DNA of 42,423 bases, taken from the NCBI GenBank assembly GCA_038326785.1, contig JBBQKK010000002.1, positions 1 through 42,423 on the forward strand. Direction: 5' to 3'. A model generated the notes under the pieces. It made no database searches. It saw only the letters and a list, made by a program, of their open reading frames with translations, and had not been told where the DNA came from. The DNA is from Candidatus Saccharimonadales bacterium (lineage in GTDB: Bacteria; Patescibacteriota; Saccharimonadia; Saccharimonadales; JBBQKK01). Below are positions 32 to 35,368 of the stretch, piece after piece (position 1 is the first letter of the stretch; each line of letters opens with the position of its first letter). A program made the position numbers and the translations under genes.

Positions 32-90
32 GGGCTCGTGGTGTAGAGGCCCGGGCATCTTCCTGTCACGGAGGAGATCGCCGGTTCAGA
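32..90 (+). pseudogene. Degenerate 5' two-thirds of a tRNA-Asp(GTC) gene, broken in the T-loop
   Basis: The first 20 nt and a 24-nt block (TGTCACGGAGGAGATCGCCGGTTC) are identical to the intact tRNA-Asp at 218-294. The D-loop and anticodon-stem 5' strand have diverged. Homology ends inside the T-loop (TTCAGA|TAATTG) and no contiguous 3' acceptor strand follows. Confidence 0.6.
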
Positions 91-179
91 TAATTGAAGC
101 GATTATCGACAATTATATGCCGAGCCCGAGATTGCCAAGTCTTATAATAGATAAAAGGCAATCCCGGAGTGAAGCTATT

Positions 180-189
180 ATCCGGTCGG
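180..189 (+). repeat. Isolated tRNA-Asp T-loop/acceptor piece ATCCGGTCGG
   Basis: The same 10-mer occurs inside the intact tRNA-Asp (277-286) and at 365-374. Here it is followed directly by AAATTAACAATTT, not by the rest of the acceptor stem. Confidence 0.55.
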
Positions 190-217
190 AAATTAACAAT
201 TTAGAACTTTGACTGTT

Positions 218-294
218 GGGCTCGTGGTGTAGAGGCCTAACATGCCTCCCTGTCACGGAGGAGATCGCCGGTTCGAATCCGGTCGGGCCCGCCA
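218..294 (+). tRNA. tRNA-Asp (anticodon GTC)
   Basis: The cloverleaf folds by eye: acceptor GGGCTCG/CGGGCCC, anticodon arm CCTCC-CTGTCAC-GGAGG, T arm GCCGG-TTCGAAT-CCGGT, G73 and an encoded CCA. Confidence 0.93.
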
Positions 295-330
295 GTCAAA
301 GCGCTAAATAAATCTTCAAAAGCTCACGCA

Positions 331-380
331 GGATTTTACTCCGAGTAAGATTGCTGAAGTAACCATCCGGTCGGACCCCA
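331..380 (+). repeat. Conserved junction motif (GGATTTTACTCCGAGTAAGATTGCTGAAGTAACC) fused to a displaced tRNA-Asp 3' fragment (ATCCGGTCGGACCCCA)
   Basis: The motif is near-identical to 8565-8598 next to tRNA-Val. The fragment repeats the T-loop-to-3'-end part of tRNA-Asp with two differences and is followed by a T-run. Confidence 0.7.
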
Positions 381-1351: not shown

Positions 1352-2575
1352 ATGGCACCAAACGAAGAACAGGCAACTCCTGGGCCGCAGAGCCCGGCAG
1401 GCCAATTAACTAGTGTTCCGGTCAACGATATAAATAAGGAGGCCACCACGATGCCGCAACCCTTTTCGGGGCCTCAAGTGGTTGGACCTCAGGCGCCTGT
1501 CGGGCAGCCCGCGTCAGTTGTTGCAATTCCTGAGCCTGCAGCGTATGCGCCTGCAGCACCCCAGGTTCAAACGGTGCCTGCTGCCTATGCACCCGTTCCA
1601 GGCTTCTCTAATCCGGCAGTAGAGCAGTCTGCACCAAAAACAAACGCGGGGGTGATAATCCTGGAGTGGCTAACTTATGCATTCTGGGGGTGGACAGTTC
1701 TGGCGTTATCGGCGCTAACGGCTACTGTATTGGCCAGCTTCATCGCAGATGCAGATACATCTGGTTTTACACCTTACGGCATCGCGGCGGTACTCGTATT
1801 GCTGCCGATCTCGTTTATTACCGATTTCTTTTACTCTAAAAAAGAGTCACAGAAAAAAGCCGGGGCAGAGATGTTGGTTATGATTATCCATGCCGTTCTT
1901 TTTGCGCTGTTTGGGATCGGTGCTTTGATAGGGGCGGTTTTCGCAACGGTCCAACTTATGACCAGTAGTGCCGATACGGCCGGCGTACAGGTCGGTCTTT
2001 ATAGCTGTCTCATCATATCGGTATATTATGCGATGACATTTTTGAGGACATTGAATCCAGCACGACTGGCTAATGTGCAGAAATTTTTTAAATTTGCCAT
2101 GCTGGCCACCGTTGGCCTAATCGTTATCTTGGCTATTGTTGGGCCAGTTTCTCAGGAAATGAGCAGAAGAGACGATAAGCTGATAGAGGCGGGGATAGGT
2201 GATTTGTCTCGAACGATAAACAATTATGCGCAGGAAAACGAAGATCTACCAAAGGATCTGAATCAGCTGACTCTATCGGGAGACGAAAAGAAGATGGTAG
2301 AGAAGGGCTTGATTGAGTACAAGCGTGAGGCCGCGGTAACGATAGGTACCAGCCGGTCGTCTACTGTCGGAACTTCCTCGAGGTTTCAACAGGCGAACAA
2401 TCAGCGGGTCGAGTATCGCTACCAACTTTGTGCCAATTATGCTAAAGAGTCTCGGGGTTACGAAAAGTACTACTCGTCCAGAGCGGAACGAAACGGCGAA
2501 TACGATACATATGTGTCGGCATATTCTCATCCGGCTGGAGAGGTCTGCTACAAACTTAAGTCTTCGAGCTATTGA
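1352..2575 (+). CDS. Hypothetical polytopic membrane protein with a Pro/Ala/Gln-rich N-terminus and a C-terminal soluble domain
   Basis: A 407-aa ORF with about 6 hydrophobic segments and a C-terminal domain containing two Cys. No family recognised. Confidence 0.65.
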   Translation: MAPNEEQATPGPQSPAGQLTSVPVNDINKEATTMPQPFSGPQVVGPQAPVGQPASVVAIPEPAAYAPAAPQVQTVPAAYAPVPGFSNPAVEQSAPKTNAGVIILEWLTYAFWGWTVLALSALTATVLASFIADADTSGFTPYGIAAVLVLLPISFITDFFYSKKESQKKAGAEMLVMIIHAVLFALFGIGALIGAVFATVQLMTSSADTAGVQVGLYSCLIISVYYAMTFLRTLNPARLANVQKFFKFAMLATVGLIVILAIVGPVSQEMSRRDDKLIEAGIGDLSRTINNYAQENEDLPKDLNQLTLSGDEKKMVEKGLIEYKREAAVTIGTSRSSTVGTSSRFQQANNQRVEYRYQLCANYAKESRGYEKYYSSRAERNGEYDTYVSAYSHPAGEVCYKLKSSSY

Positions 2576-2772
2576 TCATAGGCGTTCAGCCTTAAAATCA
2601 CGTGCCGTTTCTTGATGATTTATTCATCGTATAAAGTCGTCTGAATATATCTGCCCGGCGTAGTAGATGTCGGCCTCGGACTAAACAAACCAGTGGTTTG
2701 TGATTAATCTCATTGTTCATATGCTTACCGAGCCCGTACGCTTGAGAAACAATAAGCATGAAGGGGGATGGC

Positions 2773-3333
2773 ATGAGCAAAAAATTATCCGGGATGCGAA
2801 TCGCAATTTTGGCAACCGATATGGTAGAAGAGATTGAGTTAGTGGAACCGCGACTAGCACTGGAACGTGCTGGCGCTGAAACAGATTTAATAGCTCCGCA
2901 TGACGGGGAAATCCTCAGTGCTAATCATTACGACAAAAGCGAGGCATACCCCGTAGATGCCACCCTCGAGGAAGTAGATGATATTGATTACGATGCAGTA
3001 TTGCTACCCGGCGGCACTATGAATGCTGATTTTATGCGAACTCATCCGCGAGCACAGCAGTTTGTTCAAGCTATGGATGAAGCGGGGAAGCCGATTGCTG
3101 TTATTTGCCATGGCGCGTGGCTACTTGTGTCGGCGGGCTTGGTTGACGGCCGCACGCTCACTAGTTACCACACACTCTCAGATGACATCATTAATGCTGG
3201 TGGAGACTGGGTAGATAAGCCGGTTGTCGAAGATGAGAACTGGGTAAGTAGTCGCAAACCCGACGATATACCAGCGTTCAACGAGTCGATGGTTACTTTA
3301 TTTGCACAAATTCACCATAGCTTAGCCGTGTAA
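2773..3333 (+). CDS. DJ-1/PfpI family protein (class I glutamine amidotransferase-like fold)
   Basis: It has the KPIAVICHGAWLL nucleophile-elbow motif, the LLPGG motif and a typical size (~186 aa). The ATG at 2773 follows AAGGGGGA; the ORF track starts it at 2758. Confidence 0.85.
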   Translation: MSKKLSGMRIAILATDMVEEIELVEPRLALERAGAETDLIAPHDGEILSANHYDKSEAYPVDATLEEVDDIDYDAVLLPGGTMNADFMRTHPRAQQFVQAMDEAGKPIAVICHGAWLLVSAGLVDGRTLTSYHTLSDDIINAGGDWVDKPVVEDENWVSSRKPDDIPAFNESMVTLFAQIHHSLAV

Positions 3334-3446
3334 ATTAGATATCATCGTTGCTAGCTTCGATGGTGACCCGCTGTAATGTTGACTAAATGTCTAACAAATA
3401 GCATTACCACTTTACACAATGACACATTTGTGCTACTATGTTGTAA

Positions 3447-5261
3447 ATGTCAGAAATACAAAAAGATCATACGGTAAACAAAATTGTCATGGGGGCTACC
3501 TTGGCCGCTGCAGCACTCACGGGTGCTGCCGCTGAGGCTATGAACGATAGTCCCCAGCAAGAAGCTCATAGCCAACACGAGACTGTAATTGATATTACTG
3601 ATACTTCGGAACAGGTACGACCGGAATTAAGTCAGGCGGAGTCATTAATCCCTCAGCAAAATAATAGGGTAGAGGTTCAGAACGAGAATCCTGTCACGGA
3701 ACAGAATATCACCACCACAAATGAGACCTTACAGATAATTTCCTCTCCTAAAGGCTTACCATCTCTCGATTTCTTGCTTGTACCACAGATTGAGGCAGTA
3801 AAGCCGATAGAGCATGCCGAACCGCCGGTTGTCAAAGTTATCAGTCATCCTGCACCTGAAATATCCACCGAACCAGTCGTAGAGGAACAGCCAGTAGACG
3901 AAAAAGAATCGCTTCAGAGTATCGAATTTCATACCATAGTGCCTCAGGAAGTTTCTGAAATCATGGAACATCGCACCGTTCAGGTGCTAGGTGGCTGTTC
4001 AGGCTTCACCATAGAAGATAAGTCAGGTCAGGCTGCCGGCGTTGCGACCGCTAAGCACTGCGGTCTTAGTGATGGCTACATACATGGCAATGATGGCCAG
4101 ACCTATTTGCCGGTCAGCAGGCCACTAGATATTTACTCAGGAAGCAGTGCCGACGCCATGAGTATCAAGGGCCGTCTTGCCCATGCCTACATTTCTGCTG
4201 AAGACGGCTCAGCGCGAGACTTGGCCATTGGTGTATTAGAGGGCAATAACCCCCAGGATGTTCTGAATATGTATAAGCAGAATTCCTTGTCCTCATCCGA
4301 AATGGCGAACCTGCGCCAAGGTGATGTGATGTACCTGTCTGGATGGCCTGGAGATCAAGATAACAATACGGGAACACGGCGCCGACAAGAATTCGCCATG
4401 ACTGTACTGGGTAGCTCGGAGAAACCACATACGGTCAACAGCCAGAAATATTTGTGGACCGCCATCGAGAGTAACGCTGATGGTGCCGAATGTAGCTTCG
4501 GCAATAGTGGTGGCGAAGCTTTTGTAATTCAAGAATCTGTCAGTAGCGATGGTACGAAGCGACTAATGCCTCGATCTGCGGGAGCCCTAGCATGGTTTTA
4601 TGATTTAGCTGGTGATACCTGGATGGCGGACACCCCAGAATATGGCGCTCAAATGCGTGCAGAATTCGAAACTATGTTTGGAGTAGCACTGCCTGATTCC
4701 ATTACCGCGATATGTGGATTTGCGTATGACACGCCAAGCCCTGAGAACAACGGTATTTTAGTAAAAACCGTTGAAAGTGCCGATCTTATCCCAGGTTATG
4801 AATCGCCAGAGGCTAAAATGAACAAGGCGGCACGCGAACACTTTATGGATCCAAGTACTGAGAAAATGATTGCCGATGGCTACTTCGGTATCGGCGGTGG
4901 CAAAGAAGGATCACTAGTACTCGACCGCGTTTACTTATATTTTAATGCGCAAACCGGTCAGGTTACCGTCGGTTCATACTCGGATGAGGATGAAGGCAAT
5001 CTTCGTCTCGCTACGTATAGCAGCTTGGGCGAAGTGCAGCTGTACGACCGCGATGCCACGCCTGGCATAGAAATCACATCAGTCACCGGGCTACTGACGC
5101 CGGATACCGCGACCAAAAGCTTCATAGCTGCAGACGGGACTGCGGGCATCGGACTTGCTAGATTTATAAATACGGCAGATATAACCAGCGAGCTTTATTA
5201 TCTAGGTATAGCTGAGCCAGGTAAGTTGGCTGCGTACCCTGCGAGCCAGAGTTACAAATAG
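3447..5261 (+). CDS. Secreted trypsin-like (S1 family) serine peptidase-like protein with long N- and C-terminal extensions
   Basis: It has an N-terminal hydrophobic signal/anchor and a candidate triad of TAKHCG (His), ARDLAIGVL (Asp) and GNSGGEAF (Ser). TGcTACTAT lies 7 nt upstream of the ATG and there is no SD. Confidence 0.6.
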   Translation: MSEIQKDHTVNKIVMGATLAAAALTGAAAEAMNDSPQQEAHSQHETVIDITDTSEQVRPELSQAESLIPQQNNRVEVQNENPVTEQNITTTNETLQIISSPKGLPSLDFLLVPQIEAVKPIEHAEPPVVKVISHPAPEISTEPVVEEQPVDEKESLQSIEFHTIVPQEVSEIMEHRTVQVLGGCSGFTIEDKSGQAAGVATAKHCGLSDGYIHGNDGQTYLPVSRPLDIYSGSSADAMSIKGRLAHAYISAEDGSARDLAIGVLEGNNPQDVLNMYKQNSLSSSEMANLRQGDVMYLSGWPGDQDNNTGTRRRQEFAMTVLGSSEKPHTVNSQKYLWTAIESNADGAECSFGNSGGEAFVIQESVSSDGTKRLMPRSAGALAWFYDLAGDTWMADTPEYGAQMRAEFETMFGVALPDSITAICGFAYDTPSPENNGILVKTVESADLIPGYESPEAKMNKAAREHFMDPSTEKMIADGYFGIGGGKEGSLVLDRVYLYFNAQTGQVTVGSYSDEDEGNLRLATYSSLGEVQLYDRDATPGIEITSVTGLLTPDTATKSFIAADGTAGIGLARFINTADITSELYYLGIAEPGKLAAYPASQSYK

Positions 5262-16997: not shown

Positions 16998-17029
16998 GAA
17001 CACCGCTTTAAGGGCGGTGTTCTGCTTTA
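16998..17029 (+). terminator. rnpB terminator
   Basis: GAACACCGC-TTTAAG-GCGGTGTTC followed by TGCTTTAT. Confidence 0.6.
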
Positions 17030-17135
17030 TGAGAAAACCGAGATAGGTTTTCTCATCGCGCGGTGAAATCAAAGATTTCGCCGGCTGCTCTTTCCTGGGT
17101 AAAGACAAAAATATCTCGGAGTAAATCCGAAATAT
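17028..17135. repeat. Copy 1 of a ~105-nt structured repeat (three hairpins), downstream of rplT
   Basis: About 90 percent identical over 17028-17097 to 18400-18469. The hairpins are ATGAGAAAACC/GGTTTTCTCAT, CGGTGAAATC-AAA-GATTTCGCCG and TCGGA-GTAAA-TCCGA. Confidence 0.7.
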
Positions 17136-18399: not shown

Positions 18400-18505
18400 T
18401 ATAAGGAAACCGAGATAGGTTTCCTTATCGCGCGGTGAAATCAAAGATTTCTCCGGCTGTTCCTTCCTGAAAAAAGTTAAAAATGTGCCGAAGTAAATTC
18501 GTCTC
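18400..18505. repeat. Copy 2 of the ~105-nt structured repeat, between the comM stop and the infC promoter
   Basis: The hairpins are ATAAGGAAACC/GGTTTCCTTAT, CGGTGAAATC-AAA-GATTTCTCCG and CGAA-GTAAA-TTCG. Stem changes relative to copy 1 are compensatory. Confidence 0.7.
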
Positions 18506-32655: not shown

Positions 32656-34217
<1,562 letters not shown>

Positions 34218-34925: not shown

Positions 34926-35002
34926 CTAGTAATAATATTATCACAGCTATTCCTGAATAGACTTATAGCTTAATTTTAGATACAATACCCCTGTTCTTTT
35001 AA

Positions 35003-35037
35003 GGGTTTGTAGCTCAGCTGGTTAGAGCACGTCAGTG
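35003..35037 (+). pseudogene. 5' half (to the anticodon loop) of a second tRNA-Ile-like gene
   Basis: GGGTTTGTAGCTCAGCTGGTTAGAGCACGTCAGTG matches the intact tRNA-Ile at 30 of 35 positions. Its acceptor strand is complementary to 35276-35282. Confidence 0.7.
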
Positions 35038-35058
35038 TTATTTAACAATTTGGGGTAA

Positions 35059-35135
35059 GGGCACGTAGCTCAGCTGGTTAGAGCGCGTCACTGATAATGA
35101 CGAGGTCCCTGGTTCGAGTCCAGGCGCGCCCACCA
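35059..35135 (+). tRNA. tRNA-Ile (anticodon GAT)
   Basis: Anticodon arm CGTCA-CTGATAA-TGACG, T arm CCTGG-TTCGAGT-CCAGG and an encoded CCA. The acceptor GGGCACG/CGCGCCC contains an A5.C68 mismatch. Confidence 0.88.
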
Positions 35136-35231
35136 AATGGTTAAATGTATCAGGTATTTTATCCTGATATAATGACGTATTTAACTTGCTTGCGCGAAGA
35201 TAAATCTTCTTGCAAGGCCAAGCAAGGAAAA

Positions 35232-35288
35232 CGTAAATGTCCCCCGGACATTTACGGGTCGCAGGTTCGAGTCCTGCCAAACCCACCA
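35232..35288 (+). pseudogene. 3' half of the split tRNA-Ile-like gene, preceded by an 11-bp junction hairpin
   Basis: CGTAAATGTCC-CCC-GGACATTTACG, then GGTC, T arm GCAGG-TTCGAGT-CCTGC, acceptor CAAACCC, A and CCA. Confidence 0.7.
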
Positions 35289-35291
35289 TAT

Positions 35292-35368
35292 GGGGCATTA
35301 GCTCAGCTGGTTAGAGCACCTGCTTTGCAAGTAGGGGGTCGTCGGTTCGAATCCGACATGCTCCACCA
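35292..35368 (+). tRNA. tRNA-Ala (anticodon TGC)
   Basis: Acceptor GGGGCAT/ATGCTCC with a G3.U70 pair, anticodon loop TTTGCAA, T arm GTCGG-TTCGAAT-CCGAC and an encoded CCA. Confidence 0.93.

Follow-up and report, generated by a model that had tools for sequence, protein, structure and literature searches.

A non-coding, structured element of Saccharibacteria that looks like a miniature mobile cassette aimed at the tRNA T-loop

In a stretch of 42,423 nt of Saccharibacteria DNA (contig JBBQKK010000002.1, hereafter the window; the surrounding assembly GCA_038326785.1 comprises 737 kb and 33 tRNA genes), we find that a short motif next to displaced tRNA 3' ends belongs to an element that appears to be a new, miniature mobile cassette directed at the T-loop of tRNA genes. 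The first-pass annotation of this DNA had reported one motif abutting the 3' ends of two different tRNAs, and the sequence bears this out: the 34 nt at 331-364 and at 8565-8598 are followed directly by ATCC and the 3' end of tRNA-Asp and tRNA-Val, respectively. The motif consists of a hairpin (P3), the 3' strand of a helix (P2) and a 5-nt linker, and forms the 3' half of a scaffold of ~80 nt. In our preferred explanation, which may well be the right one, the motif marks the right end of a miniature insertion cassette, non-coding and non-autonomous, whose target is the T-loop of tRNA genes.

The diverged third copy that had been announced is present as well, at about 8830-8847; this piece (..GAAGACTGAAGAAGTAATC) runs up to 8847, right against a decayed tRNA-Val end (8848-8864). 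What did not hold is the idea that the motif stands alone: while its recurrence beside tRNAs was confirmed, it is the 3' part of scaffolds located at 280-358, 8514-8592 and 8664-8743. That such sharing reflects chance, or a generic promoter or terminator consensus, is hardly worth entertaining and is refuted for the main motif, as the window contains TTTACTCCGAG three times where shuffles predict 0.01 copies, and the scaffold gives about 300 matches in 60 genomes, all of them in one orientation behind tRNAs. Chance does fit two side observations discussed below, namely a shared word (TTAACAATTT) that is near chance level and a hairpin at 17115 that lies in another repeat. Throughout, G denotes sampled genomes (G000 is the analysed genome), C the contigs of the latter, and L individual loci, including metagenome loci.

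Behind the tRNAs, the same order of parts recurs: the tRNA with its encoded CCA, a long terminator-type hairpin of A-tract and T-tract, the ~80-nt scaffold, a short variable linker, and a repeat of the tRNA's own 3' end. Our junction statistics rest on 60 scaffold matches that have an upstream tRNA in the fetched DNA, and in 45 of these the scaffold lies less than 100 nt behind it. The repeat reaches the CCA end in 38 units spanning 21 tRNA species, with a length of 18 nt in 18 units, 19 nt in 15, 20 nt in three, and 17 and 15 nt in one each. Therefore, the break is fixed at T-loop position 58/59 whatever the tRNA, with 58 and 59 being about equally frequent as the boundary. The family of small non-coding elements with defined ends at the tRNA T-loop, which had been suggested from the window alone, is thus borne out by 38 intact units and by the covarying structure described below. 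The letters just before the break are not conserved, and the linker, 5-30 nt long, comes in several types (GTAAYC, GTGCRYT, TATA..AAT and mini-hairpins). P2 always comes after GGTTCG(A/G)N in the first helix (P1), the same word that precedes tRNA position 59.

The opening terminator stem pairs with the tRNA's own NCCA end (through TGGTG, TGGTAC, TGGCTG and similar words), over a mean of 3.6 nt in unit-bearing tRNAs versus 0.84 nt in the other tRNAs of the analysed genome, and because of this pairing the terminator seems to belong with the tRNA-specific 3' end module. It is separated from P1 by only 5-15 nt in more than 45 units, no promoter-like site was found, and each unit has a further terminator downstream. 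With a strong terminator upstream and no space for a promoter, the layout is easier to reconcile with a site that acts at the DNA level than with an RNA gene. The repeat is a perfect match to the tRNA variant of its own genome even where these tRNAs differ, as in the Glu units L015, L017 and L034 and the Arg(GCG) units L038, L046 and L051. Elsewhere the scaffold is intact though the repeat has decayed (Gly on C51, Arg on C13, Ala on C28). We also considered an 'anti-repeat', a segment upstream of P1 that is complementary to the repeat; it is strong in L038, L044, L029, L008 and L047 and was rejected as not general (mean rank fraction 0.43, top 10% in 6 of 29). Pairing of the P1 cap (P1a) with the repeat in the tRNA-Val unit looks like coincidence, since no such complement is seen by eye in the Ser (C7) and Ala (C28) units.

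The features of the window that make up these units are as follows, with intact tRNAs identified by ARAGORN and the Rfam tRNA model.

32-191, plus strand: decayed upstream copy of tRNA-Asp, read directly; 5' part at 32-90, T-loop break after ..GGTTCAGA, an insert of ~90 nt, then ATCCGGTCGGA (181-191), which is tRNA position 59 onward.
218-294, plus strand: intact tRNA-Asp(GTC) (ARAGORN, Rfam), whose last 18 nt are repeated, decayed, at 365-380.
280-358, plus strand: degenerate family-1 scaffold behind tRNA-Asp (41.3 bits, E 2e-7 with the covariance model R1); P1 decayed, no terminator, P2/P3 (about 312-359) intact.
331-364, plus strand: motif copy 1, with P3, the P2 3' strand (GAAG 356-359 pairs with CTTC 314-317) and the linker TAACC at 360-364.
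365-380, plus strand: displaced, decayed tRNA-Asp 3' end (ATCCGGTCGGACCCCA), then a T-run.
8392-8468, plus strand: intact tRNA-Val(GAC) (ARAGORN, Rfam).
8464-8508, plus strand: long terminator-type hairpin of tRNA-Val unit 1; its stem reaches 5 nt into the tRNA end (CACCA pairs with TGGTG).
8514-8592, plus strand: family-1 scaffold of tRNA-Val unit 1, in which P1, capped by P1a, is followed by P2, capped by P3; the best R1 match, 85.3 bits.
8565-8598, plus strand: motif copy 2, with P3, the P2 3' strand (GAAG 8590-8593 pairs with CTTC 8548-8551) and the linker TAACC at 8594-8598.
8599-8616, plus strand: direct repeat 1, identical to the final 18 nt of tRNA-Val (positions 59-76, CCA included).
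8612-8743, plus strand: tRNA-Val unit 2, with a terminator hairpin (core 8625-8643, from the terminator scan) and a diverged scaffold at 8664-8743 (R1 48.6 bits).
8744-8771, plus strand: linker of tRNA-Val unit 2, a mini-hairpin GGAC-AAA-GTCC, then the truncated repeat ATCCTATAT.
8826-8864, plus strand: remnant of a third tRNA-Val unit, P2 3' strand and linker only (..CCGAAGACTGAAGAAGTAATC), then the decayed tRNA-Val end at 8848-8864.

The break in the decayed tRNA-Asp copy at 32-191 lies at 58|59, as in the scaffold units, and the end of its insert resembles an 'AAAAGG..' linker type found elsewhere.

RNAalifold, applied to 10 copies, gave two hairpin domains. For P2/P3, 98.9% of the cells in 73 distinct sequences, drawn from many genomes, are paired, with 177 double changes; none of 500 shuffles came as high, and slid controls were also far below. 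The full model of five helices (P1, its cap P1a, the P2 base, P2 and P3), drawn up for 18 hand-checked sequences, pairs in 91.4% of cells compared to 73.5% in shuffles, and double changes occur in 17 of its 26 pairs. P3 has the form G-G-A-G-(T/C) / (A/G)-C-T-C-C around a TT mini-loop, with a closing pair that covaries between T-A and C-G; the 'TTTAC hairpin' for which a covariance model had been suggested was mis-registered. Since G·T outnumbers A·C by 25 to 1, the folded strand is the tRNA-sense strand. The caps are mostly C-GNA-G triloops, CTTG or TTTA loops, types that form stable DNA mini-hairpins and hint at DNA, while CUUG is also a stable RNA tetraloop. Judged from the covariation, the scaffold structure is apparently kept under selection. 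At the gathering threshold, Rfam found only tRNAs, 16S rRNA and RNase P in the window and no scaffold match, and at E<=1, over 11 loci with both scaffold families, it returned only tRNA matches and chance matches off the scaffolds.

All distribution counts rest on matches to R1, the covariance model of the ~80-nt family-1 scaffold. The analysed genome holds 14 copies, every one beside a tRNA gene or tRNA fragment: two at Val, one each at Asp, Ser(GGA), Ser(GCT), Arg(GCG), Glu(CTC), Glu(TTC), Ala(GGC) and Gly(TCC), a partial one at His, and the remaining copies in orphan arrays that still end in tRNA-like 3' ends. Among 101 genomes of the same order, 60 carry the element, with 1-23 copies each, whereas 144 genomes from other orders of the phylum gave no match. 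The genome-wide count and the survey of relatives, both proposed by the first-pass annotation, so came out in favour of its claim. This patchy, multi-copy spread is typical of mobile DNA. A search of IMG/VR with a degenerate core pattern yielded 8 contigs, none with a true scaffold or tRNA, and a phage origin of the scaffold was rejected on these grounds; literature searches found no description of these elements. Among the orphans, one family-1 unit (G000 C26:3330-3550, L011) lies behind a tRNA-like 3' end (..GGTTCGAATCCAGTCCCCGGAGCTA) that has no CCA and is not called by ARAGORN. No tmRNA gene was called anywhere in the G000 assembly.

A conserved fold with a tRNA-like tail could also be a structured small RNA, transcribed by read-through or from a cryptic promoter, which would act as mimic, decoy or guide for a reader of tRNA 3' ends such as a toxin, a processing enzyme or a protein that RNA guides to the tRNA gene. 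Strong covariation on a strand-specific fold of the tRNA-sense strand (G·U 25 versus A·C 1) is what one would expect of it, as are repeats that match each genome's own tRNA variant (the Glu and Arg(GCG) examples), the terminator after every unit, the CUUG tetraloop, and a sister element behind tRNA-Val that is an acceptor-stem minihelix ending in ACCA. We nevertheless hold this to be rather unlikely. A strong terminator sits immediately upstream with neither promoter room nor a promoter-like match, absence from 40% of the order's genomes makes the element dispensable, and scaffolds stay intact where the repeat has decayed (C51, C13, C28). Furthermore, there is no Rfam match, no guide-using protein family (TnpB/Cas12-like; TnpB in 4 of 101 genomes), and no consistent complement to the repeat. 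A DNA-level element is favoured because of the upstream terminator, the missing promoter space, the patchy distribution and the stacking described below, and the perfect match of many repeats to their own genome's tRNA is the reason why an RNA or guide idea stays alive.

That idea has a more far-reaching form, in which scaffold and 18-nt tRNA tail would be a programmable module: a conserved RNA or single-stranded DNA (ssDNA) fold would present a target-matching segment, by which a host or helper enzyme could recognise any tRNA gene at the T-loop. The layout recalls the omega-RNA of TnpB, where a scaffold is likewise followed by 16-20 nt of target sequence. We regard this as a long shot; if true, it would be RNA- or ssDNA-guided insertion unrelated to TnpB, Cas or IS110, in bacteria largely without classical mobile-element enzymes.

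Under the insertion cassette that we prefer, each unit, read in tRNA orientation, comprises tRNA positions 58/59-76, its own terminator hairpin or cargo genes in place of it, the ~80-nt scaffold of P1/P1a and P2/P3, and the linker of 5-30 nt. On one side it borders on T-loop position 58/59 and on the other on a repeated copy of positions 59-76, and the resident tRNA therefore keeps a complete 3' end and terminator; the older tRNA 3' end, displaced downstream, is the remnant seen next to the motif. Repeated insertion next to the tRNA body would lead to stacked arrays. The scaffold would fold on the tRNA-sense strand, most likely as ssDNA, and the folded form may be a cis-acting structure that is read by a hypothetical trans-acting recombinase or nuclease, a helper that most genomes may have lost. 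Natural transformation and short-homology recombination may aid the spread between lineages, with the conserved tRNA and the 18-nt repeat serving as the two homology arms. That the motifs are recombinase recognition sites, as the first-pass annotation had also considered, is in our view plausible but unproven.

Stacking is indeed observed, with three units behind the tRNA-Val of the window, and with five scaffolds over 7 kb at tRNA-Gln of G097, where three small units are followed by two more at 4.5 and 7 kb that enclose Ig-domain genes. NADAR and GIY-YIG genes lie inside other arrays. A comparison of 80 metagenome loci that have the same tRNA-Val 3' 40-mer showed many empty sites, family-1 variants and a tiny 'minihelix' element. 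Moreover, when the orthologous tRNA-Arg(TCG) units of G095 and G035 are compared, identity is ~96% over terminator and P1 and only ~75% over P2 and linker, where the changes are mostly compensatory, and the P3 core of G095 (about 30 nt) is found again at tRNA-Gly in G035. The divergence of P2 and linker, together with the recurring P3 core, points to module exchange within the genus.

The minihelix is a third element, found behind tRNA-Val in L088, L091, L108, L113, L134, L135, L117 and L076. It consists of a terminator and an acceptor-stem 'minihelix' (GGCGCGATA - loop or hairpin - ATATCGCCCACCA), ends in ACCA, and is sometimes stacked. For this element, contigs that are otherwise alike differ cleanly in having a filled or an empty site (L108 versus L066, L135 versus L082), in two downstream backgrounds and with the resident terminator left intact behind the repeat.

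So what do these units resemble? The nearest described system is that of the tycheposons, stacked tRNA-targeting elements with partial tRNAs between them and decayed remnants (bioRxiv 10.1101/2020.12.28.424599). Like P4-type islands and the tycheposons of Prochlorococcus, the units show a direct repeat of the tRNA 3' part from T-loop to CCA end (18-20 nt ending at CCA in 36 of 38 intact units), supply a new 3' end, with newcomers inserting next to the tRNA body and older elements pushed outward, and form arrays with cargo and decayed remnants. Unlike them, they are about 150 nt long and non-coding, share one scaffold over 21 tRNA species instead of having one integrase per tRNA, and have as their conserved part a covarying two-hairpin structure rather than a protein-coding module. 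An adjacent tRNA-specific recombinase was found neither in the analysed genome nor in the arrays examined.

This comparison bears on whether the units could be passive scars, that is, internally deleted integrase-driven islands of tycheposon or P4 type of which only attL, attR and the attR-adjacent non-coding end survive, and in which nothing small moves. The stacking of tycheposons, with partial tRNAs and decayed remnants, would agree with this, as would the cargo in some arrays and the recombinase genes that abut tRNA 3' ends in this group; repeats from T-loop to 3' end, which Williams reportedly described in 2002 as the classic signature of tRNA-integrating elements, also count for it. We find it improbable all the same, as independent deletions would not repeat boundaries such as the 5-15 nt between terminator and P1 in more than 45 units, and classical integrases are tRNA-specific, whereas one scaffold family covers 21 tRNA species. 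Neither in nor beside the arrays examined is there an integrase, and compensatory change keeps the structure, unlike in a dead scar.

With integron attC cassettes, the units share the lack of a promoter, an end in a structured site, a fold that is conserved more than the sequence, strand-specific folding, arrays that grow at one anchor, and many tiny or empty cassettes. They differ in being anchored at the tRNA T-loop instead of attI, in having no adjacent intI, and in the 18-19-nt repeat that flanks each; nor is an RYYYAAC...GTTRRRY core found at the junctions, which vary, the sole GTT word (GTTCGAT in P1) being internal and ~55 nt away. By analogy with the folded ssDNA attP of CTXphi and of integrative mobile elements exploiting Xer (IMEX), which have no recombinase of their own, a folded strand may be the site, and nearly all of these genomes have a single Xer-like recombinase of the host. 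Unlike in IMEX, the target is a tRNA gene and not dif, and G026, with 15 scaffolds, shows no tyrosine recombinase. Strand-specific hairpins are also shared with IS200/IS605 ends and with hairpin-type miniature inverted-repeat transposable elements (MITEs), and, as for IS200/IS605, insertion is just 3' of a short conserved word, the junction always coming after T-loop ..TTCG(A), position 57/58. TnpA/TnpB are missing from the carrier genomes or do not follow the scaffold counts, however, and unlike IS605 the units carry a replacement tRNA end and a terminator. From classical MITEs they differ in having no inverted ends and a repeat of 18-19 nt that is the tRNA end, not a short fixed duplication. 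On balance, integron attC, the folded CTXphi attP and IS200/IS605 ends would be the nearest analogies.

The likeness to IS200/IS605 can be taken one step further, by supposing that only P2/P3 and the linker (~50 nt) are mobile, as an IS200/IS605-type or REP-like (repetitive extragenic palindrome) hairpin that inserts as ssDNA 3' of the T-loop word TTCGA, used like a target-adjacent motif. The P1 stem (..GGTTCGA) and the 'repeat' would then be the two halves of a partial tRNA copy split by the insertion. This would account for the position of P2, always after GGTTCG(A/G)N, the word that precedes tRNA position 59, and for the decayed tRNA-Asp copy at 32-191, which is split at the same point without a replacement end. 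It also fits the swapping of the P2 module between orthologous units in which P1 was kept, and the strand-specific hairpins with their DNA-type loops. Still, we consider it quite improbable: P1 covaries as a helix and always accompanies P2, Y1-like open reading frames (ORFs) do not track the scaffolds, TnpB is nearly absent, and an extra, unexplained step would be needed to make a hairpin-bearing partial tRNA copy.

Several results weigh against the insertion cassette itself, first of all that a co-occurring recombinase or nuclease, which the first-pass annotation had proposed to look for, did not emerge: no family tested tracks the scaffold. Tyrosine recombinases are absent from the analysed genome and from G026 (98% complete), and relatives have about one Xer-like gene each, scaffolds present or not. 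TnpB (PF07282) is absent from the analysed genome and occurs in 4 of 101 genomes, on which a TnpB/omega-RNA guide was rejected, its fitting layout notwithstanding. Reverse transcriptase (PF00078) occurs in 19 of 101 genomes and is absent from G097, G026, G035, G095 and G000, scaffold-rich genomes among them; this, and a boundary at 58 or 59 about equally often, speaks against tRNA-primed reverse transcription over 18 nt as far as m1A58. Since every tRNA gene here encodes its CCA, the CCA of the repeat does not by itself identify a retroelement. ORFs of about 205-240 aa that resemble the Y1 transposase (PF01797), candidates for a Y1/RAYT-like enzyme, are found in 32 of 101 genomes; they show no correlation with the number of scaffolds, and G000, G035 and G095 have none. 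Casposon-type integration with a Cas1-like ruler and the bridge-RNA type of IS110 were discarded as well, with Cas1 (PF01867) and the DEDD transposase of IS110 each in none of five scaffold-rich genomes. A small GIY-YIG nuclease, likewise discarded, lies beside a scaffold in L035, and the analysed genome has only a 553-aa ORF with this domain, probably UvrC. Large serine recombinases are present in four of the five scaffold-rich genomes; those examined look like parts of separate elements at the extreme CCA end (L161 and L158) and were rejected as the engine. No recombinase was found among the ORFs of the arrays examined.

To these come points from the DNA itself. Clean filled-versus-empty pairs exist for the minihelix element only, not for family 1, and no direct sign of movement, such as an excised or circular form, was seen. 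There are no terminal inverted repeats, the A-rich terminator at the left end and the linker at the right end not being inverted copies, and there is no conserved sequence at the very junction. Moreover, the 3' end and terminator of a unit have to fit the tRNA that it follows, and it is hard to see how one scaffold family could have colonised 21 tRNA species.

Some of the enzyme genes are of interest in their own right. Genes for large serine recombinases (about 525-575 aa) end in or against the 3' ends of tRNA-Glu or tRNA-Met, as in G000 C18:1372-3093(+), with tRNA-Glu(TTC) at 3053-3127(-), in L161:7777-9432 and in L158 at about 2100-3670. L161 and L158 have a CCA-end repeat of 6-8 nt about 5.5-6 kb from the recombinase gene, and in view of these short bounding repeats they look like separate insertions, likely a separate class of integrative elements that target tRNA ends. 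The Y1-like ORFs of ~205-240 aa are multi-copy in G027, G012, G044 and others (up to 9 per genome) and match only the C-terminal two thirds of the Y1 profile; they may be domesticated or divergent HUH enzymes of this order. The lone Xer-like gene is often 1-3 kb from a scaffold match (G039, G082, G076, G021, G035, G042), and in the four such loci that we read (L022, L030, L032, L039) the tRNA is Arg(CCT) and carries the scaffold, an arrangement that may be due to conserved synteny or to a link in function.

Behind tRNA-Tyr, Arg(TCG), Leu(CAA) and Glu(TTC) there is a second family of scaffolds, at G000 C1:48490-48690, C19:6340-6512(-), C43:5650-5972(-) and C53:2250-2530(-) (L009, L005, L010 and L008). 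It has the core ..CCGATGAAAACTYGTTTTCAAT.., meets the tRNA copy at an earlier T-loop position, 54|55 (..G|TCGAATCC), and has no Rfam match. On the minus strand of G000 C16 (9650-8960), two decayed copies of tRNA-Glu(CTC) upstream of the intact gene are split in the D-loop (18|19) and T-loop (54|55) by inserts that resemble this second family, and on the same contig a repeat of the first 8 nt of tRNA-Glu(CTC) flanks another insert. The loops of tRNAs seem to be general insertion points in G000. Within the window, a 16S rRNA gene (32656-34216) is followed, after a spacer of about 840 nt, by tRNA-Ile and tRNA-Ala (35059-35368) and then by protein genes, not 23S. A 5' tRNA pseudo-fragment (positions 1 to about 33) occupies 34995-35058, just upstream of tRNA-Ile, and between tRNA-Ile and tRNA-Ala, at 35136-35291, a module (..CAAGCAAGGAAAACGTAAA-hairpin-TTTACGGG..) is joined to a T-arm and acceptor 3' half with CCACCA as its end. 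In G035 (L176), tRNA-Met has a similar module behind it.

Two words that had been linked to the motif turned out differently. The minus-strand 11-mer near infC is present, at 17115-17125 instead of 17116-17126, but is no member of the family, with no R1 match at E<=0.1; it forms the loop and 3' stem of TCGGA-TTTAC-TCCGA, in another register than GGAG-TTTA-CTCC of the scaffold. This hairpin and its described paralogue at 18489-18501 do exist, as part of a separate, multi-hairpin repeat of ~105 nt, unrelated to the tRNA scaffold, whose paralogous copies at 17028-17135 and 18400-18505 (minus strand) flank infC-rpmI-rplT, and which is possibly a leader or attenuator element. The 10-mer TTAACAATTT is likewise found where it was reported, at 193-202 and 35042-35051, yet the argument that its sharing exceeds chance fails, with 0.21 copies expected per window and two copies in 3 of 100 shuffles. 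Of its five copies in the genome, three are not near tRNAs, and both copies in the window lie between a tRNA pseudo-fragment and an intact tRNA; from this placement, the word is possibly a -10-like promoter box common to the two sites.

The genomes of Saccharibacteria are very small and contain few genes that can be recognised as belonging to mobile elements, yet this element occurs ~300 times in 60 sampled genomes, and it marks places where extra genes gather behind tRNA genes. Should the units be mobile, they would rank as the smallest integrative elements with a tRNA target described so far, and would pose the question of what recognises the universal T-loop and inserts DNA without harming the tRNA. 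A generic, harmless docking site behind tRNA genes would aid genetics in these naturally transformable bacteria, which are hard to manipulate. If the element acts as RNA instead, we would be dealing with an order-wide RNA family that is new and has a tail resembling a tRNA. Under either reading, the covariance model is a ready marker for annotating these loci.

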